In this document: piece by piece, positions 12,376-45,443 of the stretch | Numbering within the stretch: the stretch's first letter is position 1 | Layout of the letters: each line of letters starts with the position of its first letter | NCBI GenBank assembly: GCA_964514595.1 | Contig: CAZEQZ010000003.1 | Coordinates: 1-45,443, forward strand | Direction of reading: 5' to 3' | DNA length: 45,443 nucleotides | From: an uncultured Candidatus Saccharibacteria bacterium | GTDB lineage: Bacteria > Patescibacteriota > Dojkabacteria > SC72 | Notes under the pieces: model-generated | Told to the model about the DNA's origin: nothing | Databases searched by the model: none | What the model saw: the letters and a program-made list of their open reading frames with translations, nothing else | Made by a program: the position numbers and the translations under genes

Positions 12376-12449
12376 TGGTTGCGGGACATGGACTCGAACC
12401 ATGATTGACGGCTTCAAAGGCCGGTGTCCTACCATTAGACGATCCCGCA
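12376..12449 (-). tRNA. tRNA-Gln (anticodon UUG), CCA encoded
   Basis: The 74-nt cloverleaf folds by hand: acceptor UGCGGGA/UCCCGCA with a U1-A72 pair, anticodon loop CUUUGAA, T-loop TTCGAGT and 3' ACCA. Confidence 0.9.
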
Positions 12450-23997: not shown

Positions 23998-24074
23998 TGG
24001 AGCAGGAGACGGGACTCGAACCCGCAACCCTCTGTTTGGAAAACAGATATTCTAACCAATTGAACTACTCCTGC
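23998..24074 (-). tRNA. tRNA-Gly (anticodon UCC), CCA encoded
   Basis: Hand fold: acceptor GCAGGAG/CTCCTGC, anticodon stem TCTGT/ACAGA with loop TTTCCAA, T-loop TTCGAGT and discriminator U73, which is typical for Gly. Confidence 0.85.
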
Positions 24075-29919: not shown

Positions 29920-30915
29920 ATGAAGAAAGTACTTAGTATACTATTAGGAATACTAATGGTATTTGCATTAGTATTGTTAGTAGATTATGGAAAGAAGGTG
30001 GAGGCTAATGGAGGACCAAAGAATAAAACTTCCATTTGTAAAACTATTCAAAGTGGTGAATTACTAACTAGTGATAACAGAGTTATAACAACTGGATTTG
30101 ATGAATGGGGATATAACTATCAAGCTATGCTCTTTAATGGGAAATATTGTAATGCCTATCAAGATGATGATTGGTGTCAACCATATAAGGATGTTGATAT
30201 TTTAATGAAATGGAATGATGCATGGTTAAGTAATAAAGATTGCGATGGAGATGGATTACTTGATAGACACTATGGTTTTGGCTCTTACATCGGTTCTGGA
30301 GCTTGGTTAACTAATCATATGCGTGGAGAATATGAAGACACTTCATCTTATCATTGGGATATTTCAGGAGAATGGATTATTGCAGTAAATTCTGGTACAT
30401 ATCTACATGATTACACATTCTCTATGACATCTCTTGAAGATGGTACTTTTACAGGTTTTGGAGGATATCCTTCTGGCGCCAGCCCATATATCTATGACGA
30501 GATTGTAATAGATGGAATGATAAATGGTAACTCCATATCATTTAAAGCTATTTATTACCAAGGTGGTAATCCAACTGGATATTCATGGACCACTACAGGA
30601 ACAATAGATAGTAGTGGTGAAATGTCTGGAACAGGAACAAGTGGTGTAAATGAATGGCACAGCACCTCTGGCTCAGCTGAAAAATCATATTCTATATGCG
30701 AATGGAGTTATTTTGTAAAAATAGTTGCTGTTCCAGGAGATGCAACAAAAGATGCTGGCTATTGGTATTCAGCTGAAAATGTAAAAATTGGTCCTGTAAT
30801 TTGGGGAGACTTTGCTATTGTTCAAGAAGTCGATAATGATCCTTGTGCAGGATACGAAGGAGTTTCGTATAAAGGTGCATATTCTCCAGGTTTTGGTTTT
30901 TATAAACCCAGATAA
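29920..30915 (+). CDS. secreted Trp/Tyr/Gly/Asp-rich protein with six Cys and a DxDxDG-type Ca-binding-like motif
   Basis: 331 aa. Signal/anchor MKKVLSILLGILMVFALVLLV, motif NKDCDGDGLLD (aa 105-115) and a G/S/T-rich beta-like middle third. No family name recalled with confidence. Confidence 0.6.
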   Translation: MKKVLSILLGILMVFALVLLVDYGKKVEANGGPKNKTSICKTIQSGELLTSDNRVITTGFDEWGYNYQAMLFNGKYCNAYQDDDWCQPYKDVDILMKWNDAWLSNKDCDGDGLLDRHYGFGSYIGSGAWLTNHMRGEYEDTSSYHWDISGEWIIAVNSGTYLHDYTFSMTSLEDGTFTGFGGYPSGASPYIYDEIVIDGMINGNSISFKAIYYQGGNPTGYSWTTTGTIDSSGEMSGTGTSGVNEWHSTSGSAEKSYSICEWSYFVKIVAVPGDATKDAGYWYSAENVKIGPVIWGDFAIVQEVDNDPCAGYEGVSYKGAYSPGFGFYKPR

Positions 30916-31078: not shown

Positions 31079-34000
31079 ATGAAAAATTTACAAAAGAAAT
31101 CTTTTTACAAGATTTTAGTGTCTCTATTTACAATAGTAGGTACAATTATTTTCTCCTTCCTACTCTTCGATAATATCTCAAAAGTTAACGCACAAACCAG
31201 CGGTTGGCCATATTGTGGTTTCCAATGTCAAGCAGGCGATACCTACGTTACCTCTTTTAATTTGGTTGATTCTTCACACAATCCTATTCTCACATGTAAT
31301 CCAGGAGATCAAATTAATGGAATTATTAGGGTAACAATATACAACAATGCAAACAGTGACAGAAAGGCTCCTGTTCTGCTAGGAGATATTTACTCTGGTG
31401 AACAACAAATAGCTCATCTTGCCACACAGGTAGGACCTAATCTAATTGATGGGGTATGCGTAAGTGAGACAACAATACCGAAGAAAAGCTTCTTAACAGC
31501 AGATATTTACAATTTTACATGGACATGCGGTGAACCTTTAACAATTAGAAATATGGTTCTTTCTTGGACAACCGGGAATGATACTTGTGCTGATCACTTC
31601 AGTAACCCCTCTTGTGGGAACAGAACAACAAAATGTTACTCTAGTCCTAGCTTCTTAGTTACAACCCCTCTTGTAGCAGACTTCATTGCTTCTAATGTAT
31701 GTTTTGGTAATACTGTAAGTTTTCAAGATAAATCAAGTGGGGGATTACTACCATATACATACAGTTGGCTTTCAGACTCTGTCCAAATTTCAACCGCAAA
31801 AGATTTCTTATACACATACGGAACATTTGGGACCAAATCAGTCACTTTAAACGTAAAAGATTCTTTACTTCAAACAGACTCCCAAACAAAGAGTGTGTAT
31901 GTCTGGAAAAATCCTGTTGCAAGTTTTACAACCTCCACATTTACGGGATATGCTCCATTAACTGTCAACTTTACTAACACTTCAACATTAGGGGGAGCAG
32001 CAATAATATCATGGCTTTGGAACTTTGGAGATGGAAATACATCTACGTTAGTAAATCCTTCACATACATATTTAACTGACGGAACATATAATGTAACTTT
32101 AACTGTTTCAGACGCAAACGGTTGTACTCATACTAGTGCATCTACTGCTATTACAGTATTAGAACCATTAGCTTACTTAACACTAGAAAAAACAGTTGTT
32201 AATGATGATGGAGGAACTGCTACTGAAGATGATTTTCAAGCATATATTGACACGGATGATGTAGATTGGGATGTTGCTGTACCTTTAGTAGCAGGAACAT
32301 ACACTGCAAGTGAAATTACTTCTGTAACTGGCTACGACCCCTCAGATTGGAGTGGGGATTGTGATGCTGACGGATCAATTACTCTAACACCAGGACAAAA
32401 TGCAACTTGTGCAATTACTAATGATGATATAGCTCCTACAATTACTTTGAACAAAGTTGTACAAAACAACTACGGTGGTACTGCAGGAGTAAACGCTTTT
32501 GGATTGAGCATTGGAACAACTACCGTTAACTCAGGTCAAGAACTTAAAGTTAAGGCAAATGAAGCTATCGCAATCGATGAAGATGGCCTTTACGGCTACG
32601 AATTTGTTTCCATAACAGGAAAGGATTGCCCTACTGAATTAGGTGGTACTGTTACATTGGATGTTGGAGAAGATTTAGTATGTACAATTACAAACAGAGA
32701 TATTCAACCAAAATTAACTGTGATTAAAACAGTAGTAAACAATGAGGGAGGCCAAGCTGTTGCAAGCAACTTTACAATGCTTGTTACAGGAACTAATGTA
32801 AGTTCATCATCATTTGCTGGTAGTTCTACTGGTACCTTAGTAACACTCAATGCTGGTTCTTACTCTGTTGATGAACAAGCTTACACTGGATATTCTAAAT
32901 CAATTGGTGCTAATTGTTCTGGAACTATTAGTGTAGGAGATGAAAAAACATGTACTATCACAAATACAGATATAGCTCCTACCTTAACCTTAGTAAAAGT
33001 TGTCGTAAACAACAATGGTGGGACAAAAGGAATATCTGATTTTCCACTTTTTGTAGGTGCAACACAGGTTACAAGTGGTACACCTGTTACACTTAAATCT
33101 AACCTTGAATATACCGTATCTGAGACAAATCAATCAGGCTATCAAGCCTCTTCTTGGACAGGAGATTGTAGTACGGATGGAAAGATTACTCTTCAACCAG
33201 GTCAAAACAAGACATGTACAATTACTAATGATGATATTGCTCCATCACTTACATTAGTTAAGAATGTTGTAAATAGCTATGGTGGAACAGCATCCGCTAC
33301 AGATTGGACACTCTATGCTAATGGATCTACAAACATATCAGGAGCTGGAGGAGTGACAAGTGGTTCAACATTCAGTGCTGGAACCTATACTCTCTCTGAA
33401 AGTATAGGTCCGAACGGATATACAGCGGGTGATTGGGTCTGTACAGGAGTAACAAATACAGATGATTTAATAACCATAGGAATTGGACAAAGTGCTACAT
33501 GTACAATAACTAATACAGCATTACCTGGAACAATTATAGTTAAAAAGGATGTAACTAAAAAAAGTGAAGGAGAAAATATATTCTCTGATGCAACCTTTGG
33601 AGTTATGTTGGATCAAGACATAGCAGGAATGAAAACCATAAGAGATTCATCTACTGAAAGAATAGATGCTACATTTGGTTTACTAAATGCAGGAACATAC
33701 ACATTAACAGAAGTACAAGAAGATGGGTACCTCTTTATGGGATGTTATCCAGAACTTCCAGAAATTAGAAGAGGGGAACTAAGTCTACTTAATATATATG
33801 ATCCTCTTAATCCTGAGATTCAATTAGGAAATGGAGAAACTATCACATATGTATGTTACAACGAAGTAATACAACCACAACTTGAAATTGAAAAACTAAA
33901 CGATACAGGTGGACTAGGTATGAGTGCAGGAGACATTGTTACATATACAATCATAGTAAAAGCACCAGCAGATAATATTGATGGTAAATACTTACTCAAG

Positions 34001-35407
34001 AATGTTGTAGTAACCGACATATTACCGGAAGGATTTGAATACATACTAGGAAGTTGGACAGGAACAACCAATGAACCTGTATACAACGGAGTACCTGCTA
34101 AATGGGAAATAGGAGACATGGAGGAAGGAGATGTAGTTATACTAACATACAAAGCCCTCATATCTACCACACAAGAGCCAGGAGTATATCCTGACATAGC
34201 ATGGGTATCAGGAGAAGACATACTAGAAGAATCTGTCTTAGGAATATCTAGCGTAGAACCTACTGAGAACTTTGTAGGTACAAAGGTATTGGTAGTTGCA
34301 GAGGAAGAATTAGAAGAGGGAGAGGTATTAGGAGCTACTACCACAGAAACAATTGAGCTCCCAAGTACAGGAGCAAATATCCTAATTACAATAGGTGCAA
34401 TAGTATCAATGATACTAGGATTCATACTCCTACTCTTTAAACCTAAAAAGAAAGTGAAAGTACTACTCTTAACTACTATACTACTTTTAGGAATGAGCAT
34501 TTTTCTAACACCTAAAGCAACATATGCAACTGAAAGTGAAAAGATAAATGTAGTTATTAGTGAACCACAAACTCCAACTAACAAAACATCCTTTAATATT
34601 GTTTACGGAGTAGCAGATTTAGACTCAAGATCATTAACCATAGAGTGTCTAGAAGAAACATACGGTAAATATGCTACACATAATACATATAGTGGTAACT
34701 GTGCTGTAGGAGCATCCATTATAACAGGAAGTGGTACATATACATTCACTGTAAAAGCTACAGCCAACGATGGAAGTGGAGATTACAAAATATCAAAACC
34801 CGTAACAGTAGTAGTAGACTTAGAAACACCAACAGCAATTACAAACTACACTAAAACAGAAGGAGTATGTACATACACACTCTCCTTTACAACGGGGAGT
34901 AAAAGTACAAAAGTACAGATATTTAGATCCACTACACAACCATTCACTGCTAATGCATCTACATTAATTAAGGAGATAGCAGTAACACCTAACCAATATG
35001 TTACATACACAGACACTATACCTATATGTGCCCAAGAATATTTCTATGCTGTAAGAACTACTGATAATGTGAATAACACTTCCCCAATAGTCACAGACCC
35101 TATTGTTAAGACCGTAGAAGTATTAGGAACCGATACTGTACCCCAAACAACAAATACACCCACCACTCCACCTAGAACCACAACCCCTATCATTGCAGAG
35201 GAAGATACTGAAGAGGAAGTAAAGGGTGAGGAGGAGATGCTGGATACAGAAGCTCCAGAGGAATTAGAAGAAGTAGAGAAGGAGGAAAGCGACAAGGACG
35301 ATGAAGATGAGAAAAAAGGCAATGCATGGTTAATAGCTATTATTGCAATACTCTTGCTGGGTAGTGTAGGATATCTGTATGTTAAAAGACAAAGAACTAA
35401 TTACTAA
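31079..35407 (+). CDS. giant surface protein: Cys-rich head, 2 PKD domains, 5 tandem ~90-aa beta modules, SpaA/CnaB-like and DUF11-like domains, internal LPSTG sorting signal, then a second signal-like segment, Ig/FN3-like domains, T/P stalk, acidic block and TM anchor
   Basis: 1442-aa uninterrupted ORF with signal peptide (..KVNA|Q). PKD signature WLWNFGDGNTS...HTYLTDGTYNVTLTVSD. Repeats begin D-I-A/Q-P-x-L-T-L/V-x-K-x-V-x-N-x-x-G-G. LPSTG at aa 1094-1098 is followed by a TM helix and KPKKK. Confidence 0.85.
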   Translation: MKNLQKKSFYKILVSLFTIVGTIIFSFLLFDNISKVNAQTSGWPYCGFQCQAGDTYVTSFNLVDSSHNPILTCNPGDQINGIIRVTIYNNANSDRKAPVLLGDIYSGEQQIAHLATQVGPNLIDGVCVSETTIPKKSFLTADIYNFTWTCGEPLTIRNMVLSWTTGNDTCADHFSNPSCGNRTTKCYSSPSFLVTTPLVADFIASNVCFGNTVSFQDKSSGGLLPYTYSWLSDSVQISTAKDFLYTYGTFGTKSVTLNVKDSLLQTDSQTKSVYVWKNPVASFTTSTFTGYAPLTVNFTNTSTLGGAAIISWLWNFGDGNTSTLVNPSHTYLTDGTYNVTLTVSDANGCTHTSASTAITVLEPLAYLTLEKTVVNDDGGTATEDDFQAYIDTDDVDWDVAVPLVAGTYTASEITSVTGYDPSDWSGDCDADGSITLTPGQNATCAITNDDIAPTITLNKVVQNNYGGTAGVNAFGLSIGTTTVNSGQELKVKANEAIAIDEDGLYGYEFVSITGKDCPTELGGTVTLDVGEDLVCTITNRDIQPKLTVIKTVVNNEGGQAVASNFTMLVTGTNVSSSSFAGSSTGTLVTLNAGSYSVDEQAYTGYSKSIGANCSGTISVGDEKTCTITNTDIAPTLTLVKVVVNNNGGTKGISDFPLFVGATQVTSGTPVTLKSNLEYTVSETNQSGYQASSWTGDCSTDGKITLQPGQNKTCTITNDDIAPSLTLVKNVVNSYGGTASATDWTLYANGSTNISGAGGVTSGSTFSAGTYTLSESIGPNGYTAGDWVCTGVTNTDDLITIGIGQSATCTITNTALPGTIIVKKDVTKKSEGENIFSDATFGVMLDQDIAGMKTIRDSSTERIDATFGLLNAGTYTLTEVQEDGYLFMGCYPELPEIRRGELSLLNIYDPLNPEIQLGNGETITYVCYNEVIQPQLEIEKLNDTGGLGMSAGDIVTYTIIVKAPADNIDGKYLLKNVVVTDILPEGFEYILGSWTGTTNEPVYNGVPAKWEIGDMEEGDVVILTYKALISTTQEPGVYPDIAWVSGEDILEESVLGISSVEPTENFVGTKVLVVAEEELEEGEVLGATTTETIELPSTGANILITIGAIVSMILGFILLLFKPKKKVKVLLLTTILLLGMSIFLTPKATYATESEKINVVISEPQTPTNKTSFNIVYGVADLDSRSLTIECLEETYGKYATHNTYSGNCAVGASIITGSGTYTFTVKATANDGSGDYKISKPVTVVVDLETPTAITNYTKTEGVCTYTLSFTTGSKSTKVQIFRSTTQPFTANASTLIKEIAVTPNQYVTYTDTIPICAQEYFYAVRTTDNVNNTSPIVTDPIVKTVEVLGTDTVPQTTNTPTTPPRTTTPIIAEEDTEEEVKGEEEMLDTEAPEELEEVEKEESDKDDEDEKKGNAWLIAIIAILLLGSVGYLYVKRQRTNY
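32168..33520 (+). repeat. five tandem, diverged 86-94-aa coding repeats inside the adhesin
   Basis: Module starts at aa 364, 450, 541, 631 and 719 (nt 32168, 32426, 32699, 32969, 33233). Each starts ..LTL.K.VVN..GGTA..DF and ends ..C.ITN.DI. Confidence 0.8.
34358..34453 (+). other. complete sortase cell-wall sorting signal located internally (aa 1094-1125 of 1442)
   Basis: LPSTG, then the hydrophobic ANILITIGAIVSMILGFILLLF, then KPKKK. The frame continues without a stop. Confidence 0.8.
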
Positions 35408-36041
35408 GATTAAAGAGAACGGAGTAAGATACGTTGCTATCTTACTCCTTCTCACAGGCCTAATATCCCTAGTACTAACCTTCTATCCAATACTTAAATC
35501 ATACATAGACTACATACTCTTTCCACCTAATACAGATATAGCTGTTGAGATTGTTAAAGATGATAAAGATATTACAAAAAACATATCTAAAGATACAGAT
35601 ACTGTATTACTAGACCCTAACTTTGGTATATATATACCTAAAATTAAAGCAAATGCCCCTGTACTACAAGATGTTAATCCAAATGATGAAGATGAATATA
35701 TTAATGCTCTGTACAAGGGTGTAGCGCATGCTAAGGGTACTTCCACACCCAATAGGGAGGGCAATGTATTTCTCTTTGCACACTCTGCCGTAAATTTCTA
35801 TGAACAACGTAGATTTAACATATACTTCTATCTCCTAGGCGAACTTAAGAAGGATGATCCTGTATATATAAGCTATCAAGGAGAGATATATACATACAAA
35901 GTATTAGAGATTAGGAAAGTAGATCCATCTGAAACAAAATACCTAGGTAAATATATGGACGAAGATACTCTAACTATTATGACTTGTTGGCCAGCAGGTA
36001 CAGATTTTAAAAGGTTAATAGTTACTGCTGTGAGAGAGTAA
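35379..36041 (+). CDS. sortase family transpeptidase
   Basis: 220 aa. N-terminal TM helix, His in NVFLFAHS, catalytic Cys in TLTIMTCWP (TLxTC) and Arg in KRLIVTAVR. Overlaps the adhesin 3' end by 29 nt, with AGGA 8 nt upstream of the ATG. Confidence 0.85.
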   Translation: MLKDKELITKIKENGVRYVAILLLLTGLISLVLTFYPILKSYIDYILFPPNTDIAVEIVKDDKDITKNISKDTDTVLLDPNFGIYIPKIKANAPVLQDVNPNDEDEYINALYKGVAHAKGTSTPNREGNVFLFAHSAVNFYEQRRFNIYFYLLGELKKDDPVYISYQGEIYTYKVLEIRKVDPSETKYLGKYMDEDTLTIMTCWPAGTDFKRLIVTAVRE

Positions 36042-36284: not shown

Positions 36285-36854
36285 ATGCTCAAAAAGAAAA
36301 TAGCAAGAATAATATCAGAAATATCCAATGGTTTTATGACTATGATGCTAACTCCATTAATAGCCATTAATACACTACCATTAAATACTAAGGATAGAGC
36401 AATATATTCCATAGCATATATACTCTCTCCCCTCCTCCCCTATTTTGTTCTCAAATCTATGGGCAAAATATCTGACTATGAATTCACTAAAAGAGAGGAA
36501 AGACCCCCATACTTTACAACCATATCCATACTATTTGGAATAATATATTTTTTTGTTAGAAATTTAGATATACAGATATTAACAAATGTATCACTAAACA
36601 TATTCATAGTATCATCAGTAATAACATTCATTACATTCTTCTGGAAAATATCAGGTCACATGACATACTCCACACTCCTATTTGCCACTCTAATATATCT
36701 CTTTCCTAACACCCCCACCCTATACTTTCTATTTCTTTTCTCACCATTCATAGGTTGGTCTAGGATTGTCTTAGAAAAACATACACTCTCACAACTGACA
36801 CTAGGTACACTACTCACCCTATTCATTTCCATTCTCATTTACTGGGGATTTTGA
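36285..36854 (+). CDS. PAP2-superfamily-like membrane phosphatase (variant motifs)
   Basis: 189 aa, six TM helices. KISGH (PSGH-like) and SRIVLEKHTLSQ (SRx5Hx3 with Q in place of D). Motif 1 is only approximate (TKREERP). Confidence 0.5.
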   Translation: MLKKKIARIISEISNGFMTMMLTPLIAINTLPLNTKDRAIYSIAYILSPLLPYFVLKSMGKISDYEFTKREERPPYFTTISILFGIIYFFVRNLDIQILTNVSLNIFIVSSVITFITFFWKISGHMTYSTLLFATLIYLFPNTPTLYFLFLFSPFIGWSRIVLEKHTLSQLTLGTLLTLFISILIYWGF

Positions 36855-36867
36855 TAGAATACCAAAT

Positions 36868-38316
36868 ATGAACCTAACTATTACAGAACTTAGAGAAAAA
36901 CTTCTTAAAAAAGAAATATCATCTAAAGAGATAGTCAAATACTACTTAGAAAGAATTAAAAAGCTTAATCCTAATCTTAATGCATACATTACGGTATGTG
37001 AAAAAGAATCTCTTTCTAAAGCAGAGGAGATAGATAATGATTTTAACAAACTTAAAGAAAATAAATTGGCAGGAGTACCTGTCGCAGTTAAGGACATATT
37101 CTCCACACAAGACATACTCACTTCAGCAGCATCCCATATACTAGATGGCTATAAACCTGTATATAATGCAACGGTTATTGACAGGATACTAAAAGAGGAA
37201 GCAATACTCATTGGAAAAACAAACCTAGATCAGTTCTGTCACGGTTCAGGTACAGTAACGTCATACTACGGACCTGCTAGAAACCCATGGGATGTTAAAA
37301 GACTCCCTGGGGGCTCTAGTGGTGGTAGTGCTAGTGCATTAGCTGCAGATCTTTGTACAACAACCTTAGGAACAGAAACAGCAGGATCTATTAGACTCCC
37401 TGCATCATGGTGTGGGTTAGTTGGACTCAAACCAACATACGGTAGGGTATCACGATACGGTGTACTTGCAATGGGATCTTCCTTGGACTGTCCAGGACCC
37501 ATTACAAAAAGCGTAGAGGATGCAGCATATATGTTGGGTGTAATAGCTGGGTATGATAGTAATGATTTCACATCTTCCAAAACAGATACTCTGGACTACT
37601 ACAAAAACCTAAGTACGAAGAATTTAAAAGATATGAAGATAGCCCTTCCTAAAGAATACCTTGAACTAGAATTGGAAGAGGGTGTTAGAAAGAATTTTCT
37701 TAAAGGAGTTGATGCATTAAAGAAAATGGGAGTGACTGTGGAAGAGGTTAATATATTGGATCCTAAGTATGGTATAGCTGTATATACCATAACATGTAGA
37801 AGTGAAGTATCTTCTAACTTAGCTAGATATGATGGTACAAGATACGGTTTAGAGGGAAGCAAGAGTGATAATGTTAAAGAGCTATTTGAATCCACAAGAG
37901 GAGAAGGTTTTGGAGAAGAGCCCAAGAGAAGAGTAATGACTGGAACATTTTCTCTTTCAGCTGGATATGCAGATGAGTATTTCAAAAAATCTGAACAGGT
38001 TAGACAGTTAATTAAGGAGGATTTGGATAGTATACTTAAAAAATATGATGCTATAGTTGGACCCACTACTCCATCCATAGCTCTTAAGGACAAGGATGCA
38101 GATAATCCACTGTTTGGTGAAATAGCTGATGTATTAGCAGAAGGTAGTTCTGAGGCAGGACTTCCTGGTATATCCATACCTTCTGGATTAAGTGAAAATA
38201 TGCCAACAGGTATACAGTTTGTAGGGAGATATTTTGATGAACAAACAATACTTAACTTAGCATATGCATTGGAGAAAGAATTAGGGAGATTGATACTAGA
38301 TACAGATACGATATAA
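36868..38316 (+). CDS. gatA: Asp-tRNA(Asn)/Glu-tRNA(Gln) amidotransferase subunit A
   Basis: 482 aa. Amidase signature GGSSGGSASALAA, VAVKDIFST and a typical GatA length. No gatC or gatB is adjacent. Confidence 0.9.
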   Translation: MNLTITELREKLLKKEISSKEIVKYYLERIKKLNPNLNAYITVCEKESLSKAEEIDNDFNKLKENKLAGVPVAVKDIFSTQDILTSAASHILDGYKPVYNATVIDRILKEEAILIGKTNLDQFCHGSGTVTSYYGPARNPWDVKRLPGGSSGGSASALAADLCTTTLGTETAGSIRLPASWCGLVGLKPTYGRVSRYGVLAMGSSLDCPGPITKSVEDAAYMLGVIAGYDSNDFTSSKTDTLDYYKNLSTKNLKDMKIALPKEYLELELEEGVRKNFLKGVDALKKMGVTVEEVNILDPKYGIAVYTITCRSEVSSNLARYDGTRYGLEGSKSDNVKELFESTRGEGFGEEPKRRVMTGTFSLSAGYADEYFKKSEQVRQLIKEDLDSILKKYDAIVGPTTPSIALKDKDADNPLFGEIADVLAEGSSEAGLPGISIPSGLSENMPTGIQFVGRYFDEQTILNLAYALEKELGRLILDTDTI

Positions 38317-38323
38317 TGGATTA

Positions 38324-39454
38324 ATGAAACCAATCAGAATACTGTCCATAATTGGTATTGTAGTAGGTACACTGCTAATTATATCCTCCTCCACACTTCT
38401 TTTCATTCACGATAATAATCGAAAGGATGTTCTTCCAGCACAGGAAGATATATATGAATATGTACCTGATATCCAAGAAACAGATAAAGAAGAACCTCCT
38501 GAAGATATTATAGAGCTAGAGGTAGTAATCAGGGAATCAGGATGGATACCTAATTGGGCTTTTGATTTAGGATATGAAAGTCTGGTTAATAATAAGGGGG
38601 TCATAGACACCGTGCTTCCAGTACTGTACACAGTAGATAATAGTGGGAATGTTGTAACAAGGGGTGTATCGGAAGCAAATATACAGAAACTTCTAACATA
38701 TACCCGCGAGAACAATATACGTGTGATACCCACTATTGGATCATACAATACAGAAGCTATGGATGCACATTTTGCTAGTACTGAGGCATATAACAGGAAT
38801 ATTTATACAATAGTTGCCGAAATAGAGAAGTATGGTTTTGATGGTATAGATTTAGATTATGAAATGATTAGTAGTAATAATAAGGATATGTATTTACTTT
38901 TTTTAAAAGATCTACGAATTGAATTAAAGAAGAAGAACAAAATACTATCCGTTACTGTATTCGCACAATGGGATAATGGTACATATACAGACCATCAGGA
39001 TACTAGGATAGTACAGGATTATTCTAGAGTAGGAGCATTTGCTGATGAAGTAAGGATAATGGCATATGACTATACATCCTCCTCCTCAAAAGTAGCTGGA
39101 CCCATAGGGCCAGGAAATTGGATACGGGATGTACTAGATTATGCTACAAAAAATATCCCTAAGGAAAAGATATGGTTAGGTGTACACCTATACGGATATC
39201 AATGGGCTCCTGGAAAAACTACAGCTTTAACATATACAACATTAAACTCTGTACTAAACGATCCTAATACATTCGGTACATTCCGAGAGGATATAGGGGA
39301 AGGGTACTTGGAATACGGATGTGATGGTGGTCGTTGTATCGTCTACTATCAAGAACCTAAGGGAGTACAACTAAGAAGAGATATCGCAAAAGAATACGGT
39401 ATAGCTGGTATATCGTATTGGAGATTAGGTGGAGAGATGGATATATTGAAATAA
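38324..39454 (+). CDS. membrane-anchored glycoside hydrolase family 18 protein
   Basis: 376 aa. N-terminal TM helix and the catalytic DxxDxDxE motif in FDGIDLDYE. C-terminal GISYWRLGGE. Confidence 0.8.
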   Translation: MKPIRILSIIGIVVGTLLIISSSTLLFIHDNNRKDVLPAQEDIYEYVPDIQETDKEEPPEDIIELEVVIRESGWIPNWAFDLGYESLVNNKGVIDTVLPVLYTVDNSGNVVTRGVSEANIQKLLTYTRENNIRVIPTIGSYNTEAMDAHFASTEAYNRNIYTIVAEIEKYGFDGIDLDYEMISSNNKDMYLLFLKDLRIELKKKNKILSVTVFAQWDNGTYTDHQDTRIVQDYSRVGAFADEVRIMAYDYTSSSSKVAGPIGPGNWIRDVLDYATKNIPKEKIWLGVHLYGYQWAPGKTTALTYTTLNSVLNDPNTFGTFREDIGEGYLEYGCDGGRCIVYYQEPKGVQLRRDIAKEYGIAGISYWRLGGEMDILK

Positions 39455-41862: not shown

Positions 41863-41936
41863 TGAGGCGCCCGAGACTCGAACTCGGCACCTACTGCTTA
41901 AAAGGCAGTTGCTCTAACCGGATGAGCTAGCGCCCC
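41863..41936 (-). tRNA. tRNA-Lys (anticodon UUU), no encoded CCA
   Basis: Hand fold: acceptor GGGGCGC/GCGCCTC, anticodon stem ACTGC/GCAGT with loop CTTTTAA, T-loop TTCGAGT. The 3' end lies 3 nt from the convergent DUF2726 stop codon. Confidence 0.9.
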
Positions 41937-44577: not shown

Positions 44578-44650
44578 GCGAGAGTAGTTCAGTTGGTAGA
44601 ATGTCTGCTTCCCAAGTAGAAGGTCGCGGGTTCGAATCCCGTCTCTCGCT
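44578..44650 (+). tRNA. tRNA-Gly (anticodon CCC), no encoded CCA
   Basis: Hand fold: acceptor GCGAGAG/CTCTCGC, anticodon stem TCTGC/GTAGA with loop TTCCCAA, T-loop TTCGAAT and discriminator U. Confidence 0.9.
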
Positions 44651-45385: not shown

Positions 45386-45443
45386 GCTGATGTAGCTCAG
45401 TTGGTAGAGCATTCCCTTCGTAAGGGAACGGTCGATGGTTCGA
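45386..45443 (+). tRNA. tRNA-Thr (anticodon CGU), truncated by the window end
   Basis: Acceptor GCTGATG, D-arm GCTCAGTTGGTAGAGC, anticodon stem TTCCC/GGGAA with loop TTCGTAA. The T-arm is cut at the window end. Confidence 0.85.

Follow-up and report, generated by a model that had tools for sequence, protein, structure and literature searches.

The 1442-residue open reading frame (ORF) at 31079..35407 probably encodes a natural two-in-one precursor, from which cleavage would yield an adhesin linked to the wall and a tandem-FN3 protein anchored in the membrane. We assign this reading a probability of roughly 0.7, with the cleavages, the wall acceptor and the topology all deduced from sequence. 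One precursor giving two products is the best-supported mechanism because fused and split forms of the locus encode the same parts.

Within the window (the whole 45,443-nucleotide stretch of DNA analysed), the ORF lies on the + strand, as do all features described here, and comprises 1442 codons plus a stop; the same protein is found on 13 contigs from several sources. It opens with a Sec-type signal peptide, judged from sequence (aa 1-38, 31079..31192; MKNLQKK..., a hydrophobic core, then VNA with Q following the predicted cut). The adhesin body comes next (aa 39-1093, 31193..34357), where Pfam and NCBIfam models recognize a PKD domain at aa 278-360 (Pfam PKD_4, 2.2e-22), five SpaA_2 prealbumin-fold repeats (best stretch aa 721-810; Pfam SpaA_2, 9.7e-60) and a DUF11-type repeat at aa 950-994 (NCBIfam TIGR01451, 4e-06). 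Adhesin bodies of relatives range from about 300 to 2500 aa. Directly upstream of the sorting motif stands GEVLGA (aa 1081-1086, 34319..34336), the sole strict match to a V-L-G-A-type motif among the window's ORFs; of 111 fused relatives, 94 have a motif of this type in the 20 aa preceding LPxTG, against a background of about 0.024 per 20-aa window.

The sortase recognition motif LPSTG (aa 1094-1098, 34358..34372; surrounding sequence GEVLGATTTETIELPSTGAN) was read directly and is conserved in relatives. It is followed by TM1, the 22-aa hydrophobic segment of the sorting signal (ANILITIGAIVSMILGFILLLF; aa 1099-1120, 34373..34438; helix H16-36 in the AlphaFold2 model), and by the basic loop KPKKKVK (aa 1121-1127, 34439..34459), of which KPKKK makes up aa 1121-1125. 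An LPXTG pentapeptide, a hydrophobic segment of about 20 aa and a positively charged tail are thus all present, but sorting signals are expected at the extreme C-terminus (within about 35 aa), whereas 344 residues lie downstream of LPSTG and the frame stays open for 317 codons past aa 1125, much as the initial annotation had described. The Pfam Gram_pos_anchor model scores 18.3 bits on the precursor (cut-off 20), and the NCBIfam search returned no TIGR01167 match at E <=0.01.

Beyond the loop lies TM2 (aa 1128-1150, 34460..34528; helix H41-59 in the model), a putatively retained internal signal peptide with a 16-aa h-region and the c-region TPKATYA. It ends in ATYA followed by TE, also as first annotated, with a predicted signal peptidase I site after A1150 (nt 34526-34528) and a predicted module N-terminus of TESEKINVVISEPQTPTNK (TESEK...). 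These signal-peptide and topology assignments come from motif inspection and crude hydropathy scripts. TM2 matches the position of the N-terminal signal peptides in stand-alone modules, and a helix-breaking Pro and a c-region of the x-[YHL]-A type occur in fused and split forms alike; judged by these sequence features, the internal segment still resembles a signal peptide. Across the family, the median hydrophobic run is 21 aa for TM1 versus 16 aa for the TM2 h-region, and the loop between them carries a net charge of +2 to +8 (median +4) in those relatives (100 of 106) that have two hydrophobic runs. We infer that the KPKKKVK loop is cytoplasmic and does double duty, closing the sorting signal as its charged tail and opening the next signal peptide as its n-region.

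The module that follows is predicted to hold a tandem seven-strand beta-sandwich fold of FN3/Ig-like type, with domain 1 at aa 1156-1247 (34544..34819; a conserved Cys pair) and domain 2 at aa 1255-1328 (34841..35062; motif YxYAxR..D..N.S). AlphaFold2 pLDDT exceeds 90 over model residues ~70-250, covering the two beta domains, and the best PDB matches of the module in Foldseek are tandem FN3 pairs (E from 3.5e-08), generic and eukaryotic; the model and these matches support the two Ig/FN3-like domains originally proposed. No Pfam FN3 model exceeds its cut-off on the module, which draws only a weak Y_Y_Y match (18.9 bits versus 26.6) and is without a Pfam or NCBIfam family match. Its Cys columns are 100% conserved. 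A Thr/Pro-rich and then acidic stalk, predicted to be disordered (aa 1329-1415, 35063..35323; pLDDT <50), leads to the putative membrane anchor, TM3 (AWLIAIIAILLLGSVGYLYV; aa 1416-1435), and the basic tail KRQRTNY (aa 1436-1442), which together span 35324..35404 (helix H333-358 in the model) and agree with the ending first annotated. An NCBIfam match to EssA (19.6 bits) across the acidic stalk and membrane segment was taken as a composition artefact. The stalk includes EEVKGE, a degenerate copy of the family's G-E-V-L-G stalk motif (G 95% and V 82% conserved in 136 relatives), and this motif is common to the adhesin tail and the module stalk.

The internal arrangement is widespread. A full HMMER search placed the protein in a family of at least 771 clusters at 50% identity. 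Among the best 150 hits, 110 proteins were at least 450 aa long, and 99 of these long relatives have the strict LPxTG-plus-hydrophobic pattern 326-424 aa from the C-terminus. The remaining 11 mostly bear variant motifs (LAxTG or weaker), with one fragment and three proteins showing no clear motif. About 100 separate clusters at 50% identity show the internal motif, paired hydrophobic runs and basic loop, and the arrangement exceeds chance by far.

An open junction could nevertheless be an artefact, with a stop or a base lost to sequencing or assembly error, or to a recent inactivating mutation, at what are truly two genes. The junction DNA is A-rich (AAACCTAAAAAGAAAGTGAAAG), and one A fewer in its A5 run (34445-34449) would give KPKRK and then TGA, a stop overlapping the GTG at 34454; split relatives, moreover, do exist. 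However, the identical ORF occurs on the 13 contigs, all seven of seven related genome loci (33-70% identity) are in frame and open across the junction despite differing junction nucleotides, and the fused form is found in about 100 distinct clusters, so assembly error does not account for the open frame; the contigs and diverged loci led us to reject an indel in the A5 run. Between the window and its close relative L005, the stretch from LPSTG to ATYA differs by 11 synonymous-only and 3 amino-acid-changing codons. Codon comparison thus points to purifying selection on the junction in this frame, which also weighs against an artefact, and we consider that explanation exceedingly improbable.

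Other Patescibacteria carry the same parts as three genes: an LPxTG adhesin, a module of about 320 aa and a sortase. Split status was verified for seven loci (L012-L018, of which L016 and L017 share module protein P0201); some other hits called as stand-alone could be fragments. In all seven, the upstream gene ends in LPxTG, a hydrophobic segment, a basic tail and a stop, and the module begins with a classic N-terminal signal peptide whose ATG lies inside the upstream gene, with an overlap of exactly 8 nt. Wherever the contig reaches far enough, the sortase is next. Two candidate stand-alone modules, the initial hits of a word-indexed search, were dismissed as uninformative: P0001, which begins at base 1 of its contig, and P0002, which is flanked by putative adapter sequence that we take to be Nextera. 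Since split relatives have the same parts, the window ORF is best read, at the level of sequence comparison, as genes 1 and 2 of this conserved cassette joined in frame. The initial annotation had offered either a gene fusion or a lost or mis-sequenced stop; an evolutionary fusion is upheld by the split relatives, while the lost stop is contradicted by the contigs, loci and clusters above. It had also looked to orthologues to tell whether the locus is one ORF or two, and they give both answers: one ORF in seven related loci and two genes in the seven split loci. At least 13 changes between fused and split states were counted on a rough tree (neighbour-joining on a short, divergent alignment), so the two forms appear to interchange, as expected if they are functionally equivalent.

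The two halves might also be made separately, with the module translated from an internal start at GTG 34454 or the adhesin ended by a programmed frameshift, in which case no processing would be needed. The in-frame GTG (aa 1126), which we located as first annotated, coincides exactly with the ATG position of the split forms, and stops lie nearby in both other frames. Such stops are expected, however, at 34-37% G+C, and no conserved slippery site was found in the fused loci. Nor is the start conserved: the codon homologous to GTG is GTA, ATT, ATA, CTA, ATA or TAT in the six other fused loci, none of them a start, and the window lacks a Shine-Dalgarno sequence ahead of GTG, whereas AGGAG or GGAGG occupies that place in six of seven split loci. 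Because the fused loci share no conserved start codon and the window has no Shine-Dalgarno sequence, the module within the fused ORF is predicted to be untranslatable on its own. The proposal that GTG 34454 begins the second half was accordingly abandoned, as was the frameshift, neither being conserved; separate synthesis seems highly improbable.

The gene next to the precursor encodes a 220-aa sortase with an N-terminal membrane helix (35379..36041; Pfam Sortase, PF04203, 85.3 bits, E 3.6e-24, cut-off 26.6). Its start overlaps the end of the precursor ORF by 29 nt (35379 versus 35407), in agreement with the original annotation, and the related loci that reach that far all have a sortase directly downstream. 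Among 38 homologues, His135, Cys203 (TLxTC-like) and Arg212 never vary, and the predicted structure shows a sortase fold. The enzyme looks active because of this invariant His/Cys/Arg triad and the overlap with its substrate gene. By sequence and structure scores it is weakly closest to the pilus-building class C, but its 80.2 bits under the class C model NF033745 fall short of the cut-off of 160, and Foldseek separates class C, A and D structures by no more than about one to two orders of magnitude in E-value; with NCBIfam and Foldseek scores ambiguous across C, A and D, a class assignment was dropped. As to the DP[WFY] lid motif of class C, the window's sortase has DPNF directly before the first beta strand, where the family consensus is VDxxFG, and no canonical lid motif was evident by eye.

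In the two-product reading that we favor, the N-terminal signal peptide would export the adhesin until TM1, oriented out-to-in, stops transfer and leaves the KPKKK loop in the cytoplasm. TM2, once the module's signal peptide, would then restart export, and TM3 would anchor the module. The neighboring sortase would cut between T and G of LPSTG and pass the adhesin to a cell wall precursor, while signal peptidase I would cut past ATYA, releasing a type I membrane protein whose Thr/Pro-acidic stalk bears two FN3-like domains. The membrane would retain a hairpin of about 52 aa. The products would equal those of the three-gene form, at a fixed 1:1 ratio.

Alternatively, the sortase may not cut at all, and LPxTG would then be a relic within a single three-TM protein, or within one cut by signal peptidase only, with the adhesin held by the hairpin. 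The Pfam anchor score just under threshold is consistent with a relic, and TM1, whose sequence is unusually conserved inside the window's clade, could owe that conservation to a structural role in the hairpin. Yet LPxTG or LAxTG is retained in nearly all of the roughly 110 diverged fused proteins among the best 150 hits, the translationally coupled sortase keeps its catalytic triad in every locus, and in the split form the same motif is part of a canonical C-terminal sorting signal. We therefore regard a relic motif as unlikely and continue to favor sortase cleavage with two products.

The destination of the adhesin could also differ. Rather than linking it to the wall, the sortase might join the adhesin to the module, through the new N-terminus or a lysine, and thereby build a covalent, membrane-anchored adhesin on a stalk. 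This would account for the fixed make-up of the cassette, which always holds exactly these three parts, and it would suit both a sortase weakly nearest to class C and a G-E-V-L-G motif present in adhesin tail and module stalk alike. Against it, the search of 136 modules for a conserved acceptor lysine yielded a best column of only 79%, and the pilin-type candidate (Y-x-K at the domain linker) was rejected at that value, with R or H in some members. The residue past the predicted signal-peptidase site varies by inspection (T, S, E, Q, A, L, D, G or V), and the sortase both falls at 80 bits against the class C cut-off of 160 and has no canonical lid motif evident by eye. Attachment to the module thus appears quite unlikely, and wall linkage remains our preferred outcome. 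As a working guess, the module serves the adhesin-sortase pair as a membrane-tethered partner or scaffold. A bolder and doubtful extension is that a sorting system specific to Patescibacteria may require the module as its third component, not carry it passively, and that the module would either accept the adhesin or, as a membrane scaffold, present it to the sortase via G-E-V-L-G. If so, the acceptor version would amount to natural 'sortagging' of two surface proteins, and the fused precursor would be a self-contained kit of substrate, partner and, by translational coupling, enzyme.

Patescibacteria (CPR) are thought to live attached to other microbes, and the fused form belongs to a large group of tiny, uncultured members. 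Because the cassette holds the only sorting-signal-bearing substrate within the stretches examined, and lies among housekeeping genes in two Microgenomates genomes, it is a good candidate for a main surface attachment device of these bacteria and offers a concrete target for proteomics or heterologous expression. No conserved neighbors outside the cassette were found in the related loci, except in L005. The coexistence of fused and two-gene forms argues, from sequence, that two proteins can be processed out of a chain in which a signal peptide follows an internal sorting signal. Substrate predictors and curated models expect the sorting signal at the C-terminus and will miss or mis-describe this family, whose members, where looked up, were unnamed, 'hypothetical protein' or given generic domain labels only; annotation should treat fused and split forms as one system.

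Our search of the literature on internal LPXTG motifs, sortases in CPR/Patescibacteria and sortase polyproteins found no description of the window's family, but several known systems share parts of its design. Like canonical sorting signals (PF00746, TIGR01167), the window's has LPxTG, a helix of about 21 aa and a basic tail behind an adhesin with SpaA/PKD/DUF11 repeats, and split-form relatives carry a fully canonical signal; it differs in lying 344 aa from the C-terminus, ahead of a second export signal and a folded module. Sortase-assembled pilus loci likewise cluster a dedicated sortase with its substrate and encode SpaA-type adhesin domains, and the best class-level matches of the window's sortase are to class C. 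In contrast to pilus loci, each cassette has a single LPxTG protein, the partner has neither LPxTG nor a conserved acceptor lysine, and the sortase falls far short of the class C cut-off (80 versus 160 bits). The FbcH cytochrome b-c1 precursor of Bradyrhizobium is also one ORF that gives two membrane or surface proteins, split by signal peptidase at an internal signal, with separate genes elsewhere. FbcH-type polyproteins, however, have no sortase step and form an unrelated protein family.

The nearest likeness is to streptococcal IgA1 protease (ZmpA), ZmpB, ZmpC and ZmpD, which similarly combine a signal peptide, LPXTG, two hydrophobic segments and a second signal-peptidase-like site (PMC3518915; the window's sites are assigned by motif). 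In the Zmp-type model, as outlined in a passage of PMC3518915 citing Bender and Weiser 2006, LPXTG is accompanied by two TMs and a second signal-peptidase site, the second hydrophobic segment being a second signal peptide; pneumococcal proteomes are depleted of ZmpB and IgA1 protease when SrtA is lost (PMC13604702). The initial annotation's statement that no sortase substrate with a large module past the sorting signal had been described was therefore too strong (PMC3518915). The differences are nonetheless considerable. Zmp LPXTG motifs lie near the N-terminus behind a short segment, whereas 1055 aa of adhesin precede the window's (up to about 2500 in relatives), and what follows is a zinc metalloprotease (HEXXH...E) in Zmp proteins but a tandem-FN3 module with its own C-terminal anchor here, Pfam and NCBIfam detecting no protease domain in the window's precursor. 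Unlike Zmp proteins, the window's family has a dedicated, translationally coupled sortase and a split two-gene form, and in a comparison made without direct alignment the two show no sign of sequence homology. By analogy, then, the layout is a variant of the arrangement already published for streptococcal IgA1 protease and the Zmp proteases, and the little-studied Zmp arrangement is extended to a second, unrelated and much larger family.

The precursor ORF (31079..35407, + strand; 1442 aa) carries a complete cell-wall sorting signal well before its end, and translating it reproduced all of the positions in the initial annotation. LPSTG (aa 1094-1098; 34358-34372) is followed by the hydrophobic segment TM1, ANILITIGAIVSMILGFILLLF (aa 1099-1120; 34373-34438), and the basic tail KPKKK (aa 1121-1125; 34439-34453), beyond which the frame continues for 317 codons. 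These comprise an in-frame GTG (aa 1126; 34454), a second hydrophobic stretch, TM2, ending TPKATYA/TE (aa 1128-1150; 34460-34528; slashes mark predicted cleavage sites), and, after the remainder of the module, a final helix, TM3, AWLIAIIAILLLGSVGYLYV (aa 1416-1435; 35324-35383) with the C-terminal basic tail KRQRTNY (aa 1436-1442; 35384-35404). The sortase ORF (35379..36041, +; Pfam PF04203, 85 bits, E 3.6e-24) overlaps the precursor ORF by 29 nt. The region upstream of LPSTG is a typical repeat adhesin: after a predicted signal peptide (aa 1-38, VNA/Q), Pfam and NCBIfam identify a PKD domain, SpaA_2 prealbumin-fold repeats (five) and a DUF11-type repeat. The strand opposite the adhesin-module junction carries a 242-aa ORF (33856-34584, - strand); we take it as a probable shadow of the coding strand rather than a gene because its counterparts in relatives are also antisense to adhesin genes.

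The junction is A-rich, and removing one A from AAAAAG yields KPKRK-TGA, whose stop codon would overlap the GTG. Since this single deletion reproduces the look of a two-gene junction, the idea that the fused ORF is an artefact, with a stop codon lost or mis-sequenced, was tested in earnest. Assemblies from NCBI, JGI, ENA and Logan contain the identical 1442-aa protein on 13 contigs, the longest of 760 kb. A scan with the C-terminal module as query, covering a single genome of each species, returned seven loci in Patescibacteria MAGs (Dojkabacteria, UBA9296, bins labelled Saccharibacteria and one unclassified bacterium), with module identities to the window of 33-70%; in all seven, adhesin, LPxTG, both hydrophobic segments and module form one open frame. 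Junction nucleotide sequences vary from locus to locus. Furthermore, over the 57-codon stretch between LPSTG and ATYA, both included, the window and its closest relative, L005, show 11 synonymous-only and three amino-acid-changing differences, indicating that the junction is read in this frame and constrained. We therefore regard sequencing error as excluded and give an artefactual ORF almost no weight.

The fused form is widespread. HMMER, run exhaustively with a profile against 1.84 billion representative proteins, returned 771 clusters at E <=0.001 (302 at <=1e-30), the best 150 of which were analyzed. Among these 150, 110 proteins of at least 450 aa carried the module at the very C-terminus, and 99 of the 110 matched a strict LPxTG-plus-hydrophobic-run pattern at a distance of 326-424 aa (median 358) from the C-terminus. 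The remaining 11 mostly had LAQTG, LAATG, LAVTG or an LPxTG followed by a weaker helix, and included one fragment and three proteins with VLGA[AI]TGT but no clear motif. Two hydrophobic runs followed the motif in 100 of 106 fused proteins, the first of membrane-anchor length (median 21 aa) and the second with an h-region of signal-peptide length (median 16 aa), separated by a loop of net charge +2 to +8 (median +4). Nine of ten family proteins checked were unnamed, the tenth being an "uncharacterized repeat protein (TIGR01451 family)"; named matches in a second homology search were "hypothetical protein" except for one "LPXTG-motif cell wall-anchored protein". One family protein, P0002, is a chimeric fragment, since its contig, L004, from a public metagenome, contains Nextera adapter sequence (CTGTCTCTTATACACATCT) both at its start (1-40) and inside the end of the called module gene (about 740-758).

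Adhesin length is highly variable: the whole protein is 1442 aa in the window (adhesin part 31079-34357) versus 2714 aa in L005 (777-8921), whose sortase is 90% identical, and ranges from 660 to 2900 aa across the family. While the adhesin varies, the C-terminal ~400 aa and the sortase remain conserved, a pattern consistent with fast turnover of its binding region.

Relatives also encode adhesin and module as two overlapping genes, bearing out the suggestion that two genes have been fused. About 25-30 of the best 150 matches were the module alone (306-344 aa) with a predicted classic N-terminal signal peptide, e.g., MNKILIAIFSFILSISLFASVALA/AG, and the second search added about 60 stand-alone modules, the named ones from Collierbacteria, Gottesmanbacteria, Microgenomates and Saccharimonadales and all labelled "hypothetical protein". 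Seven split loci were inspected, two of which (L016 and L017) share the module protein P0201. In all seven, the gene before the module finishes with a canonical sorting signal and then a stop codon (e.g., GEILGASIALPQTGADIKWIIAASLLLTFGVTTFALGIKIRRKYE), and the module ATG overlaps it by exactly 8 nt (ATGnnTAA; L012 2942-2949, L013 197-204, L014 2886-2893, L015 1499-1506, L016 and L018 10001-10008, L017 3955-3962). A Shine-Dalgarno sequence (AGGAG or GGAGG) lies within Arg codons of the sorting-signal basic tail in six of the seven, and the sortase directly follows the module wherever the contig reaches. In two Microgenomates genomes the trio sits amid housekeeping genes (tig, thrS, infC, rplT, pheST and a class A PBP).

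As the split loci are built of the same parts, the unit is a three-gene cassette of adhesin, module and sortase, the first two genes of which are fused in frame in the window. The module's signal peptide persists as the second hydrophobic segment of the fused form; its c-region (Pro, then x-[Y/H/L]-A) is alike in both forms, and the sorting signal's basic tail doubles as its n-region. On a rough, noisy neighbor-joining tree of 136 modules, of which 113 are fused and 23 split, the state changes at least 13 times, which suggests that the two forms interconvert easily; a single-base indel at the 8-nt overlap would convert one into the other.

Separate halves could also arise from a fused gene by internal initiation, as had been suggested for the GTG at 34454, or by frameshifting. 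However, the homologous codon in six other fused loci is GTA, ATT, ATA, CTA, ATA and TAT, and no Shine-Dalgarno sequence was found ahead of the GTG in the window, making this route highly improbable. The fused-form module must therefore be made as part of the long chain.

We propose that this chain is a precursor of two proteins. The adhesin would be exported by Sec; TM1 would stop transfer, keeping the basic loop inside; the retained signal peptide would restart export; and TM3 would anchor the module. Sortase would then cut LPST/G and transfer the adhesin to the wall, and signal peptidase would cut after ATYA, yielding at a 1:1 ratio the mature pair that the three-gene form makes and leaving behind a hairpin of ~52 aa. 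The sequences establish the architecture, how far it is conserved, the equivalence of fused and split forms and the link to the sortase; from them we infer both cleavages, the acceptor and the topology. This polyprotein reading is well supported by the comparative evidence, and we put the probability of a wall-linked adhesin and a membrane-anchored module arising from one precursor through sortase and signal peptidase at roughly 0.7. Alternatively, the product may remain an uncut protein with three transmembrane segments, which is unlikely given that both the LPxTG and a coupled, intact sortase are retained almost universally. The sortase might instead transfer the adhesin onto the module, but no lysine column is more than 79% conserved and the predicted new N-terminal residue is variable by inspection, so we consider such a linkage rather improbable.

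An AlphaFold2 model of aa 1084-1442 (40-sequence alignment; mean pLDDT 79) comprises a TM1/TM2 helical hairpin, two beta-sandwich domains (pLDDT >90), a disordered stalk and a final helix. A Cys pair is conserved in each beta-sandwich (columns 100% and 92% conserved). The closest PDB matches are tandem FN3 pairs (e.g., neogenin FN5-6, E 3.5e-08), which carry no information on module function. In 94 of 111 fused proteins a short motif, G-E-V-L-G-A, lies before LPxTG, usually separated from it by exactly three residues (window copy 34319-34336), against a background rate of about 0.024 per 20 aa; the motif is found in split-form adhesins too. A similar G-[EQ]-V-[LK]-G lies in the low-complexity module stalk (window about 35063-35323; G 95% and V 82% conserved in 136 sequences) with no LPxTG nearby. 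Both products would therefore share one membrane-proximal motif, which hints at a common recognition step.

The sortase model has a sortase fold, and His135, Cys203 and Arg212 do not vary among 38 homologues. The sortase fits no class. Its best class match is class C, at 80 bits versus a cut-off of 160, and PDB matches from classes C, A and D score similarly. No other LPxTG-plus-hydrophobic signal was found in the window or the first ten related loci and fragments (L003-L011), and across loci only the substrate-sortase pair is conserved. Downstream, genes for a PAP2-family phosphatase (36285-36854, +; 25.6 bits, slightly below the Pfam cut-off), an Amidase-family protein (36868-38316, +; GatA-like by our reading) and a GH18 glycosidase (38324-39454, +) are conserved in L005 only and do not belong to the cassette. 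A PAP2 enzyme beside a sortase could be tied to lipid-carrier recycling. Directly upstream of the adhesin, a predicted secreted protein of 331 aa (29920-30915, +), Gly/Tyr/Trp-rich with a signal peptide, matches nothing in Pfam or NCBIfam and is missing at the syntenic position in L005, which suggests a lineage-specific insertion. Rfam identified four complete tRNA genes in the window (Gln-TTG, 12376-12449; Gly-TCC, 23998-24074; Lys-TTT, 41863-41936; Gly-CCC, 44578-44650), a fifth cut by the window end (45386-45443) and no other family at threshold.

Literature searches returned neither an account of this family nor, beyond bare mention of a sortase gene, one of Patescibacteria sortase systems. 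The initial annotation knew of no described sortase substrate with a large module after the sorting signal, but the layout does have a precedent: a passage of PMC3518915 (citing Bender and Weiser 2006) describes streptococcal Zmp/IgA1 proteases as having a signal peptide, an atypically placed LPXTG and a very large extracellular part, and knocking out srtA in pneumococcus depletes ZmpB and IgA1 protease (PMC13604702). The likeness lies in the way the arrangement works, and the adhesin-module family is not a member of that group. Unlike in the Zmp proteases, its LPxTG is not near the N-terminus and comes after a whole adhesin, what follows the motif is a membrane-anchored FN3 module rather than a protease, the sortase is dedicated, and a split form exists.
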